A DNA stretch of 64,000 bases from Paecilomyces variotii. Lineage: Eukaryota. Positions 1 through 10,485 of this stretch are shown piece by piece. The translations under genes and the position numbers were made by a program. Below the pieces are notes generated by a model, which was given only the letters and a program-made list of their open reading frames with translations, did no database searches and was not told the origin of the DNA. Position 1 is the stretch's first letter, and every line of letters begins with the position of its first letter. The stretch is from NCBI GenBank assembly GCA_004022145.1, contig RCNU01000001.1; one strand, given 5' to 3'.

Positions 1-740
1 ATCTTATAATACTAATAAAGAGTATTATAAAAGAGATAGATCTAATTTATTTACCCTAAATCTAATATATTCTATTCTTTAGTATAAGAAGAAAAGGTAA
101 TAAAAATACCTTATTTATATTAATATTATCTATAGCAGGCAGAGCAATAATAATAATAGTGCTAGTCCTTAAAGAAAGATATATAATATATATAATAGAT
201 TGAGTTAGATAAAGAGCTTAAGCCTATACTTATATTCTATATTTATATCTATAGCTAAGCTTTATAATAATCTAATTAGTACTAGTAATAATTAATATAG
301 ATACTGTAAGATAGGGGTATTATTATCTAATATATATTATAGCTCTATAAGATCTATAAGATTATTAATAGTATAGAATTAATTAAATAATAATAGATAT
401 AATAATTAATATAATAGCTAGAATATTTATTATATCTATTTAAAGTAAATATTTAATTATTATAAGAAATATAATACTTATAATCTATAAATAGCTATAG
501 TATATTATTATAAATAGCTATATAATAATCTATATATTTAATATATTAATAAAGAATAGGTTTATAGATAGGCTCTATATATTGCCTATAATAAGTATTA
601 GGGTTAAATATAAGTATAGATATAAAGATAAATAAGAAAGCAGATATTAATAATAAATAGCAAAGATCTAAGATAAATATATATTATAAAGGCATTAATA
701 GCCGCTATTAATATATAAAATAATTTAGAGTAGTTATAGA

Positions 741-925
741 AAACTAAAAAAACCGAACTAAACCGAACCGAACCGCCTATAGTTTAGTTCGGTTTATAAT
801 TTTATAAACCGGAACGGTTTATAGACTTTGTAAACCGAACCGATAGTTTATGGTACACTATATGGTTTTTTTAGGTTTGGTTTTTTTGGGTTTTTTAGTT
901 TAATTCGGTTTTTTTGGTTTTTTTT
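741..925. repeat. Left subterminal repeat array (AAACCGAAC / GTTCGGTTT units)
   Basis: aaccgaactaaaccgaaccgaaccg, agttcggttt, aaaccggaacggttt, aaaccgaaccg and ttcggttttt units occur in both orientations next to the TIR. Confidence 0.85.
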
Positions 926-1249
926 AGTTACTTTAGATTAATCTGAATTTTTATATAAATCTTATTAATCTTTAAGAACTATTTAGATTTTTATTTCTTT
1001 ATAATATCTATTACTAAATATTAACTAAAAATTAGTAGAATAATATTAGAATATAATATTAGAGTCTAACTTAAGTTAGATTCTTAATATTTATATTAGC
1101 CTTTAATATAGTTAATCTAGCGTAAGCAATAATTAAAAGACTCAGATCTATTTATAGTTATTATGTTCCTCTAAAGATATATAGAAACTCTAGATATAGA
1201 TAATTTATTTAATTATTCTCCTTTATTATAAGTAGATTTAATAATAGGT

Positions 1250-3900
1250 TAATTTATTTAAATACTTAAAAGACCTTAACCCCTAAACTGCTTTATTTAA
1301 TAATCTTTATTATTTATATTTATCTCTCCTTCTGATATATTATCTATATCCTTATTATTATTGATTAGATTTAGTAATTTAATCTCTTCTTTTTTAGATT
1401 ATTGATTATTAGGTATTATATTTATATTATTAGTTATTATCTTAAACTCCTGCTAAATAGTGAAATTTTTAATATATATAAAAAATATTAAAGCATAGAT
1501 TATATTAGGAAATAGTTAGCTATATTAGTAATAGCAGATATCTCGGGTATTATTAAATAATTGTTCTATATTAATATTATTTGATAGGATTATAAGAAAA
1601 TCTTAGGCTATTATTATAAGAATTAGGAATTGGTATTTATTAATTCTCCAATAATTAAGGATATTATCTGATTCTAATAAACCTAATCTAATTTAAGTTA
1701 GAATAATACTGTGTGATTTAGATATAATATTGGATAGAATATTACCTTTAGTAAGATAAGTCTGAATTTCTCGATAAGTACTAGTAGTACTTAAAGGGAG
1801 ATAATAATATTTAGATTGTGTAAGTGCATAATCTAAGGTTAAGACTGATAAATAGGTTCCTAATTATATCTTAATATTTAGATTTTAATTACTATAGTAT
1901 TAAAATATCTTATAAAAAATCTTTTTATAAGTATTATACTAGTTTTTTATTATATCTTGCCAGACTTAAGTTTTAAAATATTTAAGTTTTGCGCTGGGGT
2001 AAAAGATCGTTATAATTATATATATAAATCCTTAAGATTTATATATTTTAGTATAATAAGTTTATAACTTATTATAAGTTTTAGATAAAATATTTTAGAG
2101 TTAGATCTTTTATATAGCTCTTTTTAATTTTAAATGCTCTATATAGTTATTAAGATAATTAAAGATAATATTATAGATTTTAAAAACCCTATAAATTAAT
2201 AGACTGTTTATCTTTAATATAGTAAGAGTAAGATTATAGAATAGCTAGATTAACTTAATAAGATATTTAACCTAATATTATTTAGTAGGAGATAATATCA
2301 GAAAATAAATATCTTTATTAGCTTATAATATAATAAATCGTCTAATTACTATATATAGTTTAAGGGTATATATAAATATAAAATATATTGAATTCTATTA
2401 TATCTGGTAATTAAGAAGTAATAATTTTAGCTAATTAGTACTTAATTATTATAATATTAAGAAATATTCCTAATGCTAAGGGCTTATATTAATAAATCTA
2501 GTAATCTTGTAAATCTATATAAAAATCTATTAGTATTAATCTAACTTAAGTTAAATAAAGAATATCTTTTCTAATAATATTGGGATACTCTAAGGATATA
2601 ATAGGCCTTTATCTTTTTTTATATCCTAATTAATACTATTATTAATAGGAGTATTAATATAGAGTTTATCTAGTAAAGTATTAACTATAAGTTATAAAAT
2701 ATATATTAAATATAGAATATAATAGCAATTTAAAATGAGTTAACTTAATATTATATCTTAGAAATCTTCTAATAATAAATTTGTTTTAAGCTTATCCTTT
2801 AGGCTTTTATCTAGCTTTGTTATTAGGGTAATATTATTATTTGTATTATCTATAGTAATAGTAAGAATCTAATATTATAAATTATATTAATAAAGATTTT
2901 TTAGTAATATTTTAGCTAAGTTTTTCCTAGTATATAATTTATAAATAGAATTAAAGGCTAAGAGTACTTCCCTATATATTTATTTTATATTAATAAAATA
3001 CCCAGTTATAGCAAAAAAAGAATATTAACTTTAATTAGTCTAATAATTTAATACTAGAGAAATCTTTCCTTGCTCTGGTAAATATAATAATATTTTAATA
3101 TAATTAATCTCCTTGAATTTAAAAAGGTATACTTAAATCTGATATTAGTTAGATAATTCTAGATGTAAATTACCAGCAGCTGTATATAATATATAGCAGA
3201 ACTAAATATATTTAACTATTTAAAATAATTAGCAATATTCTATAATAAAATACAGGATCTAATTATATAATATATCTAGTATATATATTGGATTAAAAGT
3301 TTTTTAAAAAAAATATTAGTAATAAAGTCTATATTAATTATCTAGTTCTTACCTTTATAATTAATATATTTTAAATATTGTTATTTTTTTAAGTCTTATC
3401 TTTAGATTAGTATATGGCTTTTTTTATATAGGCGGCTATTAAGCTAATACTATTTCCTCCTTTATAAGAATATTGAAGAAATATAGAGTAATATAAATAT
3501 TATATATAAGGGATACTAGAAATATTATTTGTAACTTCTTAATAATATTGCTATATATATAATTAAGTCTTTATTTTTGCCTATTAAAACTTAGACTATT
3601 ATTTTATAAACTCTGTTTTATTTTATTAAAATTTAAAAATCTAAACCTGTTTTAAAAGAGCTAAATAGATAATAGCCTTTTTTTAATTATATCTTATTAT
3701 CTTAAGTTTAGTTAAGTTAAGAGTATTAGCTTTAGATTGGGGCTTATATTGTTTAATAGGATTATAATTAAAATTTATATTCTAGATATTAGTATTTAAA
3801 GATAAAGGAGTTTTATAGGTCTTTATAAGAGTATAAATAATATAATTCTAAAACTATAATAAAGGACCCGGTAATCCTAATATATCTCTATTAAAATAAA
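1250..3900 (-). pseudogene. hAT transposase, RIP-mutated (ends approximate; core readable ~1490-3080)
   Basis: Allowing only C>T/G>A reversions, the minus strand gives KISLALDCWTS...FFAITGYFI...YREVLLAF...HTGENLA...ILAITTDNASNN (~3065-2830), HIPCLAHILQL (~2720-2690), IRKIARFINASPQR (~2514-2470), TRWNSTYFML (~2403-2375) and the dimerisation domain YWRIN..QFP.L..MARDFLAIP....VERLFNSARDICHY (~1655-1520). Introns at 2515-2565 and 1683-1745. Confidence 0.92.
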
Positions 3901-4439
3901 GTAAGGAGGAGGAGAAATTTAAAAATAATAGTATTAGCAGCGGTATAATATCTATAGCATTTTAACTTAAGTTAGATTTCTGCTTAGATATATTTATATC
4001 TTAGGTTATTATAAAGCTAGCTTAGATTATTAAGATATATTATTTTTTTTTTTTATTTTATAGTCCTTATCTTTATAGTCCCGCTCTTTTATCTTTAATT
4101 ATTATTCTAAAATAGAAATAAGAAGCAATAGCTATATTAACTTAAATTAAATCTTTAAAAACTAATTTCTGTTTTATTAATAAAATCTACTTTAATTTAA
4201 GTTAGAAATAAAGCTTTTAAATAATATAAGTTCTTATTACTAGAAGAAAACCATTTTTAAATAATCTAATTTAGAAGTAGAGATTGTATTATTAGTCTAA
4301 AAAAAACCTGATTATTTTATTTCTAACTTAAGTTAGTTTTTTATATACTAAGTAAATACTATTAAGATAGCTTATCTAGAGCTAAACTAAAAAATCTAAA
4401 TTTAAATTAAAAACTTAGCCCTGCTCCTATATTTATAAT

Positions 4440-7400
4440 AATAATATTATTATAACTATTTAATAATATAATTAATAAGAAAAATAACTTATCTTTATTA
4501 TTATTATCTGTATTATTCTTTTAAGGCATATTATTTGCCTTATTAGTCTCTGTGTCTTAATCTAGAATTTTAATTAAATCTTATTCTAATTTTAGTTAGA
4601 ATAGATATATTAATCTATTTACCTATAGAATCTTTTAATATTTTTTATTTTTTTCTTAAGATATTAAAAGTAATAGCTTAGAGCTATTTCTAATTTTTTA
4701 GCTTATGTTGTTCCTTATTATTATTATAAGGGCGTTTATTTATTAGTAGTTAGTTTAATAAAGTTAAAAAAGGTATATATGACTTCTTCTAAGCAGTATA
4801 TTTATTCTTAATTTTAAGATTATAGTCTAGTATAAAGCGCTATAGATATTTATTTATATTATTTATATCTGGAGCCCAGTCCTATTTAATTAAAAGATTG
4901 GCGATCTTTTTTAGTGTTTATAAGCACTAATACTATTCCTTCTAAATCAGGTTAATTTCTAACTTAAGTTAGATTAGTAGTATATATATCTTAGTCTTAA
5001 TAAAATCCTTAGAATCTTTCTTGTAATTATTAGTCTTAGAGAAGCTAAGCTTTATAATATAAATTATGCTTTTCTTAATAGATTAGTATATCTATAGAGC
5101 CCTAGTAATATTAAATTAGGTCTTTAAATTATCCTTATACTAGTTAATTTTTAGGATTTTTAGATTCTTTATTATATTATTATATTGAAATTAGGCTTGC
5201 TATATAATATTGCTAAAGGTAATAAAGATAGAAAGTTATTTGTCCTATATTATATTAGTTTTAATTTAAGTTAGAATAGTCTAGACTTATAATCTTGCTC
5301 TTATTGTTAAATTAATTTATAATGCTCTTAAAGTTAAGTAGGACTGTTTTAGAAGTTATATAGAGGATATAGGCTTAATAGCGCTGTTTAAAATAGGAAA
5401 GATATATATATTATTAGTTATAACTATCTTATTCTTTAATATCTTAAAAATAGAGATTGTTATATAGTTCTAGCAGCTAAAAGATATTAGTATTAATTCT
5501 AATTATAGTTAAGTAAAGTTATTATATAATGCTTTAGATCTGCTTAAGTTTATAGGGAGTCCTTATAAAGCTTATTAGCGAGTTTTTTTATAAAGCCCTT
5601 AATAGCATATATATTATCGGACTTATAAAAGAGAGAATATTAAAGTTTATTTGTTTACTAGAATTCTTAGAGATATTTAGAGGCTATAGCAGGATATTGC
5701 TATTCTAGATTATATTAGAATATAATATATTTTAGTATAGATTTTAATAGAAGACTAATTTTATTATTAAGATTAATCTATAAGCTTTTATAATAATTAG
5801 TTTGTAATTAATTTTTATATCTAACTTAAGTTAAAACTTATTATAAGGGGAACTTAAGTTCTCTATTTTCTAAAATATTCTTCTATATTTATATATATAC
5901 TTTATTTAGTAGGGCTATAAGAAAAGATAGTTATTAAATAGGGTTTTTAAGAGATAGCATAAGAATCTTTAAGTAAGATAATAATTATTTATTAAACTAC
6001 CTGTAATCTAGAGATAGTTTAAGTTTATTATTTTTATAATCTGCCCGCAAAGGAAAGAATAATATATATAAGATATAATTACTCGCGCTATAATAATACT
6101 TAGTAATTAGTCTCTAATCTTCTGCTAATATTATTTTGCTTTATTTATTTATAAAGATTATCTTAGTAAAGCTAAAAAACTTCTTAAACTTTATAATCTA
6201 GATCTAATTTAAGTTAGAAAATTAAAATTAAAATTAAATCCCTGAATATATTTAATTTAGCTTTATATTTATAATTATTTCTCTTAATATATAGTTCTAA
6301 TAAGAGTAATTATAAGTTGTCTATAAATACTCCTATAAATATTATAATTAAATATTATTATATAGAGGGGCTATAATATAAGCTATATAGTTAAATAATA
6401 TATTAATAATAGGGTGTGTTTAATTTTTAAACTTTTTATAGTTCTTTAGTAGTTCTTTATATTAATTTATAGATTTCTTCTTTTACTCTTTAATAAGTAA
6501 GAATATATGCTCTTTATTAGTATTAATATAAGTAATATTTTTATAATTGGATTATAATACTGTAAGAATTTCTGATAATATTGCCTTATTATAGAGGTTA
6601 ATAGCCTAGAGATATGCCTGTGGATTAATTAGCTAAATTCTAACTTAAGTTAAAATAGAGATATATATCGGCCTATAGTCTTTTAATTATCTTTCCTTTA
6701 TAATTAATAGCTTTAGCGGTAGCTGTTTTTTTCTGCTTAGTTAGCAGCTCTAGAAGAGCTATATAATAATATTGCCTAGCTTATAATATTAGTAATATAA
6801 GCCCTTTTAGCTATTTCTTTAGATAGATAAAAAAGTTGCTATCTTTATTCTACTGCTGTTTTAAGAGATTATAAATATTGTTAATATCTACTAGTTTTAG
6901 TAGTTTTGTTATATATGCTTGCAATACTAGATTAAAGTCCTTAGCGCTTAGGGTCGCTTTTATTTATATATTAATATTAAATCTTTATATGCTAGTATAG
7001 AACTTATTTTTTAGGTTTTTAATATAGTTAGTATTAATATTTTAATTGTGTTCTATATCTTTCTAAGATATTTTAAGCTTCCTTATATCTATATATAATA
7101 TTCTTAGATATTTATTCTTAAGCTTTGTGTAGATTATATTATCTCTTATTATTAAGAAGACTCTAGCCTTAGCTATATAGGCCTTTAGCCTATATAATAT
7201 ATTAATCTAAATAGGCTTAAAATCTAAATAGGGTTCTATAGAATTATTATAATTATAAGCCTTAGGTCTTTTTTATTAATACTTTTAGCTAGATTTTTTA
7301 TATTAAAATCTTAGAGAGTTTGTCTTATTATTTAATAGGTATTTTTATTATTTATACTGTCTTTCTAATAGATAAAGTTATAGAGCCTTTAACTTAAGTT

Positions 7401-8400
7401 AGAATTTTAATTATAATAGGGTTAATAATTTATAGTAATATATAATAATCTTCCCTTATATCCTTAAAAATAATCTAACTTAAATTAGATTATTATTTAG
7501 TCTGTGTGCTATTCTTTACCTAGAGTTCCTCAATTAAATTCTAACCAGGTTAGAATTTATTTTTTTTATTAAAGAATATATTTAGTAAAAGAAGTAAATA
7601 TAGTAAAAGAAAAAATAATATAATATATATACTCCTAATATAGATTATATCTAATTAGGAAATTGTATATATATAGGTATATAATATTAGAGACTCCTTA
7701 GGCTCTCTTATTAATTATTTTATTATTACTTTAGTTAACTATTATTAGTAAGATTGCTGCTAATTAAATAAGTAAGCCTTGCCTATTTTTTAGAGACTAA
7801 ACTTATAAATTCTAATTTAAGTTAAATTATAAGTGGGTCTATTATATATTTAATTTGTTATTATCTTTATTATTAGTAATATCTTGTAATAACTTATTGC
7901 TTATATTTCTTTTTTAGTGGCTTATAGTAGTATTTTAAAGGTGCTTTAAATTCTTAGGTTTTAGTTAGATATATTTAATTAAAAGATCAGTATATAATAC
8001 TTATTATTTATCTTATTCCTCTATAGGCTAAGTTATATATAGATAATAGTTAGTTTATTTAGTAATATAGCTAAAGTAGCGCTAAATATTTTAAGTATAA
8101 CCTTCTAGTATATTTTAACTTAAGTTAAAATGCTCTTTTCTGGCTTAGATTATCTATTTAAACCGCCCTTTATATCTAGAGCTACTATAATAATAAATAA
8201 CTTATAATTTTTTTTAATTATTGTTTTATAAAATCTTAATATTTCTTTTTTAAAACTATCTTATTTAATTTGCCTTTAAAAAAGAAAGATATTAGCCCTG
8301 GGTTATAATAGTTATTATTAAGATTAATCTGATTATTCTTAAGAATATCTTTATTAATCCTGAAGCTATTTTATCTAAAATTGCTATATTTTTTATTTGG
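4440..8400 (-). pseudogene. Second element-borne gene: multi-intron ParB-like / DUF3723-like protein, RIP-mutated (ends approximate)
   Basis: One continuous frame 7140-6667 whose stops all revert by RIP: KYLG..Y.DIRKL..SWKD.EHNRDIDTNHVKNLKNKF.TG.RRFD..TRMKATLSAEDF...WPEGL..P.LQAGQHRRAALLELL (literal L*ARQYYYIALLELL at ~6786-6742). After intron 6618-6666 it continues AYLWAIDLYD...L.SNR....NTDGE. About 11 short intron-like segments lie between 4562 and ~8165. The family assignment is from motif recall only. Confidence 0.7.
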
Positions 8401-9409
8401 CTTAATAAGATTAAGGGATATTCTTATATTTATTTTTACCTTTTTTTTTTTTAATATTATTTAAAAGGCAAATTGGCAAATTTTATTGCCCGATATTAAT
8501 ATGTAAGATATATATTTCTACTTATAGTCTACTGTAAAAAAGTATTAAGTAACTTAGCTTGTTATATTTAATATATTAATAAAAATATAGATAGCTAATT
8601 TAATTTAGGATAAATAATTCTGGTATATTTAGGGGATTATTTTAATTGCTTTCTTAAATAGTAAGGGAAAGTATCTTGTAATTTAAGATTATAATCTATG
8701 AGATCCTGGCTAAAAATAACTATATTAATTTTTTTTTTTAGCACAGAATTATTTTTTAAAATTGGTAAGAAAAAAAACCTTAGTTTTATTATTATAGTAT
8801 TATATTAATAGAGCTAAATTAGGGTAAAATAAGTGTCTGCAATTTATAATAGAATAGCTATATTAAATAGCTTAATTAGGGGATTATCTATTATAAGAGA
8901 ATAATATTTAACTTAAAAACTATATTTAGATAAAAAAGAAATAGCTATAAGAATAATATAATCTTAGTAGTTTAAACTTAAGTTAGAATTTTAGTAAGCT
9001 TTATAAGTATATAGAATTTATATATTTTCTATAGAAGTTATAACTTACTAATTATATATAGATTTTATTATTAATTTATTAAAAGAATAATCTAGAAATT
9101 ACTTTTTATTAAGAATAATAATAGTAAATAAAATCTATTCTTTAGTTTAATAACTTTAGCTTTTATAATAAATTATATATATTGTTTAATAGTACTCTAT
9201 TAGCACTATAGTTTATAAATATATATATATATTTCTATAATAATTATTTTAAAGTTTATATTAATATTTAATAATATTTTAAAAGACTATCTTTATATTT
9301 TTAGATTTAATATAATAATATTATATTTAAACTATTTTTTAGCTATAGATTTAAAAGGATATAAATTTAATAATAATATAAAATAATATAGAATATTAAT
9401 ACCTTTAAC

Positions 9410-9615
9410 ACTGTAAACTGTATAAACTATTTAAACCGAACTGTTTAAGAAAAATCTAACTTAAGTTAGTTTAGCGCCCGGTCTTAGCGAATATTTTGGT
9501 TTTTTTGGTTTTAAACTGAACTGCCAGAATACGGTTTAGTTTAGGTATGGTTTTCCTGCCCTGAATTAAAACCTGCTATGGGCGGTTTAACCCTTCCCCG
9601 AACCGAACTGAACTA
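9410..9615. repeat. Right subterminal repeat array (AAACCGAAC-like units)
   Basis: aaaccgaactg, aaactgaactg, cggtttagttt, gcggttt and ccgaaccgaactgaac next to the right TIR. Confidence 0.8.
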
Positions 9616-10485
9616 CCTATATAACCAGTCTAAAATAATTTAATATTATAATAAATTCTAAAGGATTATAATATTATAAAATAAAAATAGAGATAGATTT
9701 TATAGATAAAATATTTACTATATTTAAAATAAGATATATATATATTTATAAAGCAATTTAGATATTAAAATAATAGTTAATATCTAATTTCTATAAATAA
9801 GGAAAGTAATAAATTATACTTATAGTAATAAATAATATATAGCACTTAAAAGAAGCTATTAATAATATTAAATAAAGATATAAAATATATAGTTATAAAA
9901 GATTAGAGGAATAATATATATAATAGGGATAGAAAGATAAAGATAGAGGTAATATTTAGTATATATTGCTAAAGATAGTATAAAAAGTTTAGATAAAAAA
10001 GTAGTTTTAATAAAATATAGGAGCCTATATGTAACTACAGGAAGCATCTAGAATAGAAGATGGTTAGACTAAAACTAATAAGCAATACAGAATAGCAGCA
10101 GTAGAACAGATATTAAAGTATACATTTTAAAGGGATCGCCTATGTATATATATGATCCTGGGGATAATATGGCTCTTTTCCTTGGATATCTTGTGTTTCC
10201 TGCCAAGTCTAGGGAAGCTTGGACTTTGCCCACGTGGATACCCCAGGAATTGGTTCGCGCGAGTAAGATCCATTATACAATGGTCAATGCATGTTCACAG
10301 AGAGGGAAATATCGCAAATAGGATAACTTAGACGAAGAGAGGCTTGAACTATCATCGCATATAGCGGCCTTACGTTCTATAGGGCATGCTTGATCCAAGA
10401 TACTGTACAATTCTACCAAGTTGAACGGAGCTATGCTATCGCTATCGTACACTAGTCCAACATCTAGCTTTGAAGAAATGCAGCT

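Follow-up and report, generated by a model that had tools for sequence, protein, structure and literature searches.

The hAT elements, which include Ac, Hermes and the fungal Restless, are flanked by an 8-bp duplication, have short inverted ends that start with TAG, and carry subterminal repeats in both orientations. They encode a transposase with a C-terminal hAT dimerisation motif, and the transposase has few, short introns. A different arrangement is seen in En/Spm (CACTA), where two proteins are encoded on one strand with many introns, and the second protein, TnpA, binds a repeated 12-bp motif.

Symmetric sequence is also found in fungal introns. The sister stwintrons of the Hypoxylaceae are internally symmetric spliceosomal introns that have proliferated, as reported in PMC8469720, and related fungal stwintrons and introner-like elements are the subject of two further papers (PMC9024468, PMC12403724). 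Introners are introns derived from transposons, according to two reports (10.1101/2022.06.06.494994, PMC12130899).

The window analysed here is a 64,000-nt stretch of contig RCNU01000001.1 from Paecilomyces variotii. Its G+C content is ~20% over the first 10 kb and ~50% over the remainder. Sequence changed by repeat-induced point mutation (RIP) has a high TpA/ApT and a low (CpA+TpG)/(ApC+GpT) relative to host DNA, and the values between 726 and 9632 are 1.31 and 0.43, compared with 0.69 and 1.24 in the host part. On the basis of the AT-rich composition and these indices, this region is a fungal repeat hit by RIP. It is bounded by a perfect 8-bp duplication, AAATAATT, and by 13-nt terminal inverted repeats (TAGAGTAGTTATA at the left), of which 11/13 positions are identical and one more differs by a transition when the left end is compared with the reverse complement of the right. 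Repeats of the AAACCGAAC type lie just inside both ends. The region is an 8907-bp RIP-degraded hAT transposon, classed as such by its ends, its target duplication and a weak match to the dimerisation domain. It contains two genes, both on the minus strand. An earlier note, made from the sequence alone, had described it as a transposon with two minus-strand genes, and this description holds. An Rfam search of 1-10200 gave no RNA family. The features are listed in Table 1.

Table 1. Features of the transposon and of the palindrome copies within it (positions in the window).
Feature	Position	Strand	Remarks
Left 8-bp target-site duplication AAATAATT	718-725	.	8/8 same as 9633-9640
Left terminal inverted repeat TAGAGTAGTTATA	726-738	+	13 nt
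Left subterminal AAACCGAAC-type repeats	745-930		both orientations
Palindrome copy, left subterminal	1065-1080		
Gene 1, hAT transposase, RIP-degraded	1250-3960	-	introns 2565-2515, 1745-1683; N-terminal limit uncertain
Probable intron with palindrome (1687-1702), 63 nt	1683-1745	-	frame 2 either side
Predicted intron with palindrome (2540-2555), 51 nt	2515-2565	-	P0001 ORF end
Intergenic spacer with four copies (3961, 4136, 4191, 4322)	3961-4337		
Gene 2, helical protein of no recognised family, RIP-degraded	4410-8260	-	P0002/P0003 alignments and codon-frame profile; limits approximate
Intron-like segment, palindrome (4585)	4562-4622	-	61 nt in line with frame 2 before, 0 after
Predicted intron with palindrome (4958), 48 nt	4942-4989	-	P0003, P0005, P0006 gene models
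Intron-like segment, palindrome (5260)	5245-5290	-	46 nt in line with frame 1 before, 2 after
Intron-like segment, degenerate weak copy	5477-5525	-	frame 0 to 1 fits 49 nt
Intron-like segment, palindrome (5820)	5785-5841	-	57 nt fits with AAAAG acceptor at 5785
Intron-like segment, palindrome (6203)	6198-6251	-	54 nt in line with frame 0 before and after; P0002 stops upstream, at 6300
Predicted intron with palindrome (6639), 49 nt	6618-6666	-	P0002 joins across, frame change
Probable 138-nt intron without palindrome, or indel between copies	6961-7098	-	P0002 46-residue gap
Three close copies (7388, 7474, 7547), putative introns and micro-exons of 29 and 21 nt	7387-7581	-	
Intron-like segment, palindrome (7811)	7797-7848	-	part of frame chain
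Intron-like segment, palindrome (8114)	8105-8163	-	fits only with exon end in frame 1
Palindrome copy upstream of gene 2	8972-8987		
Palindrome copy, right subterminal	9455-9470		
Right subterminal AAACCGAAC-type repeats	9420-9615	.	both orientations
Right terminal inverted repeat	9620-9632	-	inverted partner of TAGAGTAGTTATA
Right 8-bp target-site duplication AAATAATT	9633-9640	.	perfect copy of left one

The 16-nt palindrome TCTAACTTAAGTTAGA occurs 18 times between 1065 and 9470 when up to three mismatches are allowed, and all of these copies have two or fewer. The number expected is 0.34 from shuffles of the whole window, and 0.6-0.7 from Markov models of order 1-3 for the AT-rich 10 kb alone. 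There are no copies in the 54 kb of host DNA at 10001-64000, introns included, nor in ~1.1 kb of AT-rich DNA beyond the element, so that within the window the palindrome is confined to the element. A weaker copy at 4136 has four mismatches, and a variant copy at 7547 (TCTAAC-CAG-GTTAGA) is one base shorter. Both halves of the palindrome are retained in all 19 aligned copies. There is a weak symmetric extension, with A at -2 in 14/19 and T at +2 in 12/19, giving the extended form (A-N-)TCTAACTTAAGTTAGA(-N-T). Past this core of 16-20 bp, no similarity is found between flanks or between introns. Independent point mutation cannot yield twenty identical 16-mers in unrelated flanks, which points to copying. 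Excision footprints were considered as the origin and rejected, since 20 sites have the same sequence. A Helitron end was rejected too, as was a half-site of telomere type, C being found at position 1 in no copy.

In its ends, target duplication, subterminal repeats, weak dimerisation match and short transposase introns, the element resembles the hAT superfamily. It differs from it in its size (8.9 kb), in having a second large gene, and in having a 16-bp palindrome throughout its body, mostly in introns. It shares with En/Spm two genes on the same strand, many introns and a repeated motif, for which binding is here putative; the motifs of En/Spm are however subterminal rather than intronic, and it belongs to another superfamily. 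Stwintrons and introner-like elements are likewise intron families that share symmetric sequence without target duplications, but the stwintron symmetry consists of inverted repeats of 45-55 nt, involves the whole intron and is found in host genes, compared with 16-20 bp in one transposon here. Introners too consist of inverted-repeat DNA, which provides splice signals and gives rise to introns, but each is a complete element with target duplications and they are scattered through host genes; there is no such spread in the window. A full-text search of a literature library for the 14-mer core of the palindrome found no paper. Topical searches brought up only the symmetric introns of Hypoxylaceae, and no description of a transposon with one identical palindrome in nearly all of its introns. 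None of the systems compared unites the introns of a transposon itself with a single short palindrome common to them. The arrangement is real, and it is unusual.

The copies contain 26 mismatches across the 19 aligned, of which 21 are C>T or G>A. Cytosines in a CpT context are a poor substrate for RIP, and the survival of C and G in the palindrome may reflect context only. The palindromes could in that case have no present function, and be leftovers of old internal duplications or of gene conversion between introns, whose CpT cytosines escaped RIP. Both the RIP-type mismatches and the sequence context are compatible with this. Unselected old duplicates should however have decayed evenly, whereas the flanks are fully diverged and the 19 copies of the 16-mer have only five non-RIP changes. 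We regard the absence of any function as decidedly improbable.

TCTAACTTAAGTTAGA contains a stop codon in whichever of the three frames it is read and, being palindromic, in all six. Its absence from exons is therefore forced, and is silent on the suggestion in the earlier note that introns act as slots that hold a site every few hundred bp. The mean spacing is 420 bp, with a CV of 0.78 compared with a mean CV of 0.93 for random placement. Since 21% of 5000 random sets were as even as this or more so, the spacing is no more regular than random; a role of the introns as slots is hypothetical. Seven copies lie outside the gene bodies, as had been noted, and four of these are within 380 bp between the genes, where the codon-frame profile gives no coding signal (4412-3933).

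Gene 1 matches Dimer_Tnp_hAT (PF05699) at ~1507-1665 on the minus strand with E 0.0099 and 16.1 bits, which is below the cut-off of 21.4, the query being the RIP-degraded translation. The hAT dimerisation motif in this degraded translation was read by eye. With the degraded translation of 3570-2566, an un-degraded ORF, P0001, was found (E 4e-64), which aligns to 3192-2554 with 55% identity (E 2e-66). P0001 has no Pfam or PDB match, and a metagenome scan with it was empty. Past the sequence ...SLEK, it has four further codons (VFSI) and then stops at the TAA of the palindrome, so that the ORF ends just beyond the donor predicted at 2565. In the segment 1745-1683, the palindrome TAA is in frame and lies 21 codons' worth upstream of the in-frame dimerisation motif. 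The C-terminal domain resumes in the same frame 63 nt on, from which we infer that this segment is an intron. Near 3600 the reading frame shifts, with no canonical palindrome there; a scrambled look-alike is present at ~3697-3720.

Three proteins came out of an exhaustive HMMER search in which one frame of gene 2 was the query. P0002 and P0003 are un-degraded, annotated gene models of Paecilomyces variotii, and are predictions rather than transcripts. P0002 joins KKPQAD to AYLWAINLYNK precisely over 6666-6618, with the expected change of frame. P0003 lacks 4989-4942, a gap of 16 residues, which is exactly 48 nt, and the same stretch is left out of P0005 and P0006, which cluster with it. As gene predictions, these models show that an un-degraded copy is interrupted at both positions by a segment whose splice sites are usable. 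At the level of sequence comparison, un-degraded relatives thus confirm three predicted palindrome introns (2565-2515, 6666-6618 and 4989-4942), and three to four of the copies reside in introns. The earlier note had reported that removal of the introns at 1683, 2515 and 6618 joins conserved motifs in frame; relatives support the introns at 2515 and 6618, and that at 1683 is deduced from the frame.

For the other 11 of the 14 segments, intron status is based on reading frames only. Stop-codon counts alone failed to separate the frames in short exons, and a codon model was therefore used, with 1917 nt of validated coding sequence for training. Left-out blocks were placed in the right frame in 7/7 cases, and 150-nt chunks in 8/10. 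The intron lengths drawn in the earlier note fit the frames for the segments starting at 6251, 5525, 5290 and 4622. For 7848, 7581, 7519 and 7433, only the summed length fits, and the micro-exons between them (7434-7540) are putative; the segment at 8163 fits conditionally. The frames do not fit 5841-5778 as first drawn (64 nt) unless the acceptor is moved. The copy at ~5490 has a weak motif, and its designation as degenerate is that of the earlier note alone. No frame of the exon 7796-7582 scores as coding.

Besides the exon 7796-7582 and the putative micro-exons, other results speak against the statement that nearly every intron contains the palindrome. They are the stretch 7098-6961, which has AT..AG ends and four in-frame stops, is free of the palindrome and is either an intron or an indel, and the frame switches near 3600 and, in gene 2, near 8250, where there is no canonical copy.

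The 14 segments are 41-64 nt long, with the palindrome 0-42 nt from the intron 3' end. Their donors begin with AT in ten cases and GT in four, in keeping with the view that most donors have been changed by RIP. As was also observed earlier, the palindrome carries CTAAC and TAG on both strands, and several introns have a second CTAAT or CTAAC closer to the acceptor that may be a separate branch site. In all 14 segments CTAAC is 11-53 nt from the acceptor, which is a usable range. The palindrome might therefore regulate splicing at the RNA level, its 3' half pairing either with the half that holds the branch point or with palindromes elsewhere in the introns, and thereby tuning intron removal or alternative splicing; one long transcript would yield both proteins, and the stops in six frames would truncate unspliced messages. 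The two genes share a strand and there are copies in the spacer, as this would require, and the hairpin is present in the minimum-energy fold in 6/7 contexts. Its energy is however small (-3 to -5 kcal/mol, z -1.2 to -2.6), two contexts being no better than shuffles, and the copies close to the element ends (1065 and 9455) are unlikely to be intronic. The RNA-library contigs contain no spliced RNA: those over 6618-6666, 6198-6251 and 7387-7433 are unspliced, and the contigs are degraded copies and may be DNA, so that the lack of spliced cover in them is by itself no proof in either direction. A role in splicing regulation is unlikely, and the weakness of the hairpin favours a role at the DNA level. 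Contig joints that end beside palindromes were considered as deletions and rejected, their short sides of 21-25 letters being taken as a palindrome aligned to another copy.

The requirement for copying speaks for an introner-like origin, in which the palindrome would be the core of a unit that works in either orientation, having a branch point and TAG on both strands, and that was copied around the element. Copies that landed in coding sequence would have survived by splicing at a nearby donor and acceptor, while those in the spacer simply remained. The variable position of the core in very short introns fits this origin, as does the lack of homology outside it. Gene 2 is dense in introns (up to 13 in ~3.9 kb), and symmetric, proliferating intron families exist in fungi, according to PMC8469720. 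At 6666-6618, the first 10 nt of the intron and the first 10 of the next exon have 8 identical positions and 2 transitions, resembling a target duplication, but such a flank is found at only 1/14 introns. Known introners and introner-like elements are similar over their whole length, rather than over 16-20 bp, and an insert of this size alone cannot account for a 50-nt intron unless coding sequence was lost. Near-identical whole introns in many host genes, which define introners, were not found, there being no copies in the 54 kb of host sequence. We consider an introner-like origin rather unlikely, though it is the main rival to the reading preferred below. It is unlikely, too, that the palindrome is a minimal either-orientation intron seed, having a branch point and TAG on each strand and stops in six frames, copied repeatedly into the hAT's own genes and creating most of their introns.

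It is tentatively proposed, with a probability of about 35%, that the palindrome is the binding site of a dimeric protein encoded by the element, tolerated only in non-coding DNA. The region 726-9632 is a single copy, inactivated by RIP, of a two-gene hAT transposon of high copy number, and its ~20 palindromes would be a family-specific cis element with dyad symmetry, spread inside the transposon by copying. The dimeric binder would be the transposase or the product of gene 2, and its action on the DNA would serve regulation or assembly of the element. The stops in six frames would restrict the palindrome to introns, spacers and subterminal DNA, and within introns the CTAAC half could double as a branch point, so that a copy there would be cost-free. 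A dyad DNA site is favoured because both halves are kept everywhere, whereas a branch point needs CTAAC alone, and because several introns already have their second CTAAT/CTAAC. It is also favoured by the restriction of the copies to the element, the variable position in introns that have no similarity past the core, and the seven extragenic copies, four of them where the promoter of the transposase gene would be expected.

Other observations weigh against a binding site. Copy density is ~1 per 55 nt in introns compared with ~1 per 315 nt in other non-coding DNA, and this ~6-fold difference argues against a pure binding site. The usual hAT sites are short subterminal repeats, which are already present here as AAACCGAAC; the spacing is not regular; and the CpT context may be all that the survival of C and G reflects.

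A further point against it is that the searches of gene 2 brought up no DNA-binding domain. The Pfam matches of gene 2 are at chance level and far below cut-off, with E 0.013 for ALIX and 0.0097 for Mu Gam. A lead to DUF3723 (Atlas feature score 0.93, with 149 shared features, under the tool's guide of 170) was rejected, with no match to PF12520 in Pfam at E up to 1. The largest exon of gene 2 as query gave no match of near length, P0002 as query found no longer proteins, a family search with P0003 gave no usable match, and a metagenome scan with alignment A1 was empty. The AlphaFold model of gene 2 has a mean pLDDT of 42.5. P0002 ends at a TAG that is also present in the window at 6300, and gene 2 may therefore be more than one gene.

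If the palindrome is a protein site, a mobile element places regulatory DNA inside its genes and leaves the protein untouched. If it is an intron seed, it is a tractable case of fungal intron gain, and the spread of introner-like introns in fungi, so far without explanation, would then be tied to a fungal DNA transposon. The RNA-library contigs, from two runs of one organism, contain thousands of pieces that are 85-99% alike, with differences that are almost all transitions, indicating that the transposon family is high-copy and has been degraded many times over. With un-degraded fragments present in the Paecilomyces variotii annotations, this makes both readings testable.

Three P. variotii gene models that carry a fragment of gene 2 (P0003, P0005 and P0007) have C-termini with the sequence ...NYYRKFVPHFSAIARPL, which resembles a retrotransposon polymerase motif. 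Because the gene 2 fragment continues into this retrotransposon-polymerase-like sequence, the loci are chimeric relics and not intact elements. The degraded element itself forms a minor portion of two metatranscriptome libraries labelled as food fermentation, X1 and X2 (0.08 and 0.05 of sampled words, respectively), from which 361 and 146 pieces, respectively, could be aligned to it; these pieces may derive from DNA.

The near-repeat at the confirmed intron 6618-6666, where the first 10 nt of the intron and the start of the downstream exon match at eight positions and differ by two transitions, looks like a target duplication. It was found at this intron only, out of 14.

Two further sequences resemble the palindrome. 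The variant palindrome has the core AACTTAAGTT in common with the main palindrome, and is located within the coding frame, where it encodes E-L-K-F; the palindrome copy at 5820, which is in an intron, follows 15 nt downstream. The scrambled look-alike is close to a point, towards the 5' end of the transposase gene, at which the reading frame changes without a canonical copy of the palindrome.

At the left end of the element, the inverted repeat covers both the end and the subterminal repeats, and this end could fold back on itself by means of it. The right subterminal region retains G+C far above the remainder of the element, as if it had partially escaped RIP.

Positions of the features described in the text
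Feature	Position	Sequence or size
Inverted repeat	706-955	58 nt, 76% complementary, 134 nt apart
Scrambled look-alike	3697-3720	CTTAAGTTTAGTTAAGTTAA
Variant palindrome	5849-5862	12 bp, GAACTTAAGTTC
Downstream exon start	6608-6617	GCATATCTCT
Palindrome intron (minus strand)	6618-6666	ATATATCTCT (first 10 nt)
Right subterminal region	9470-9610
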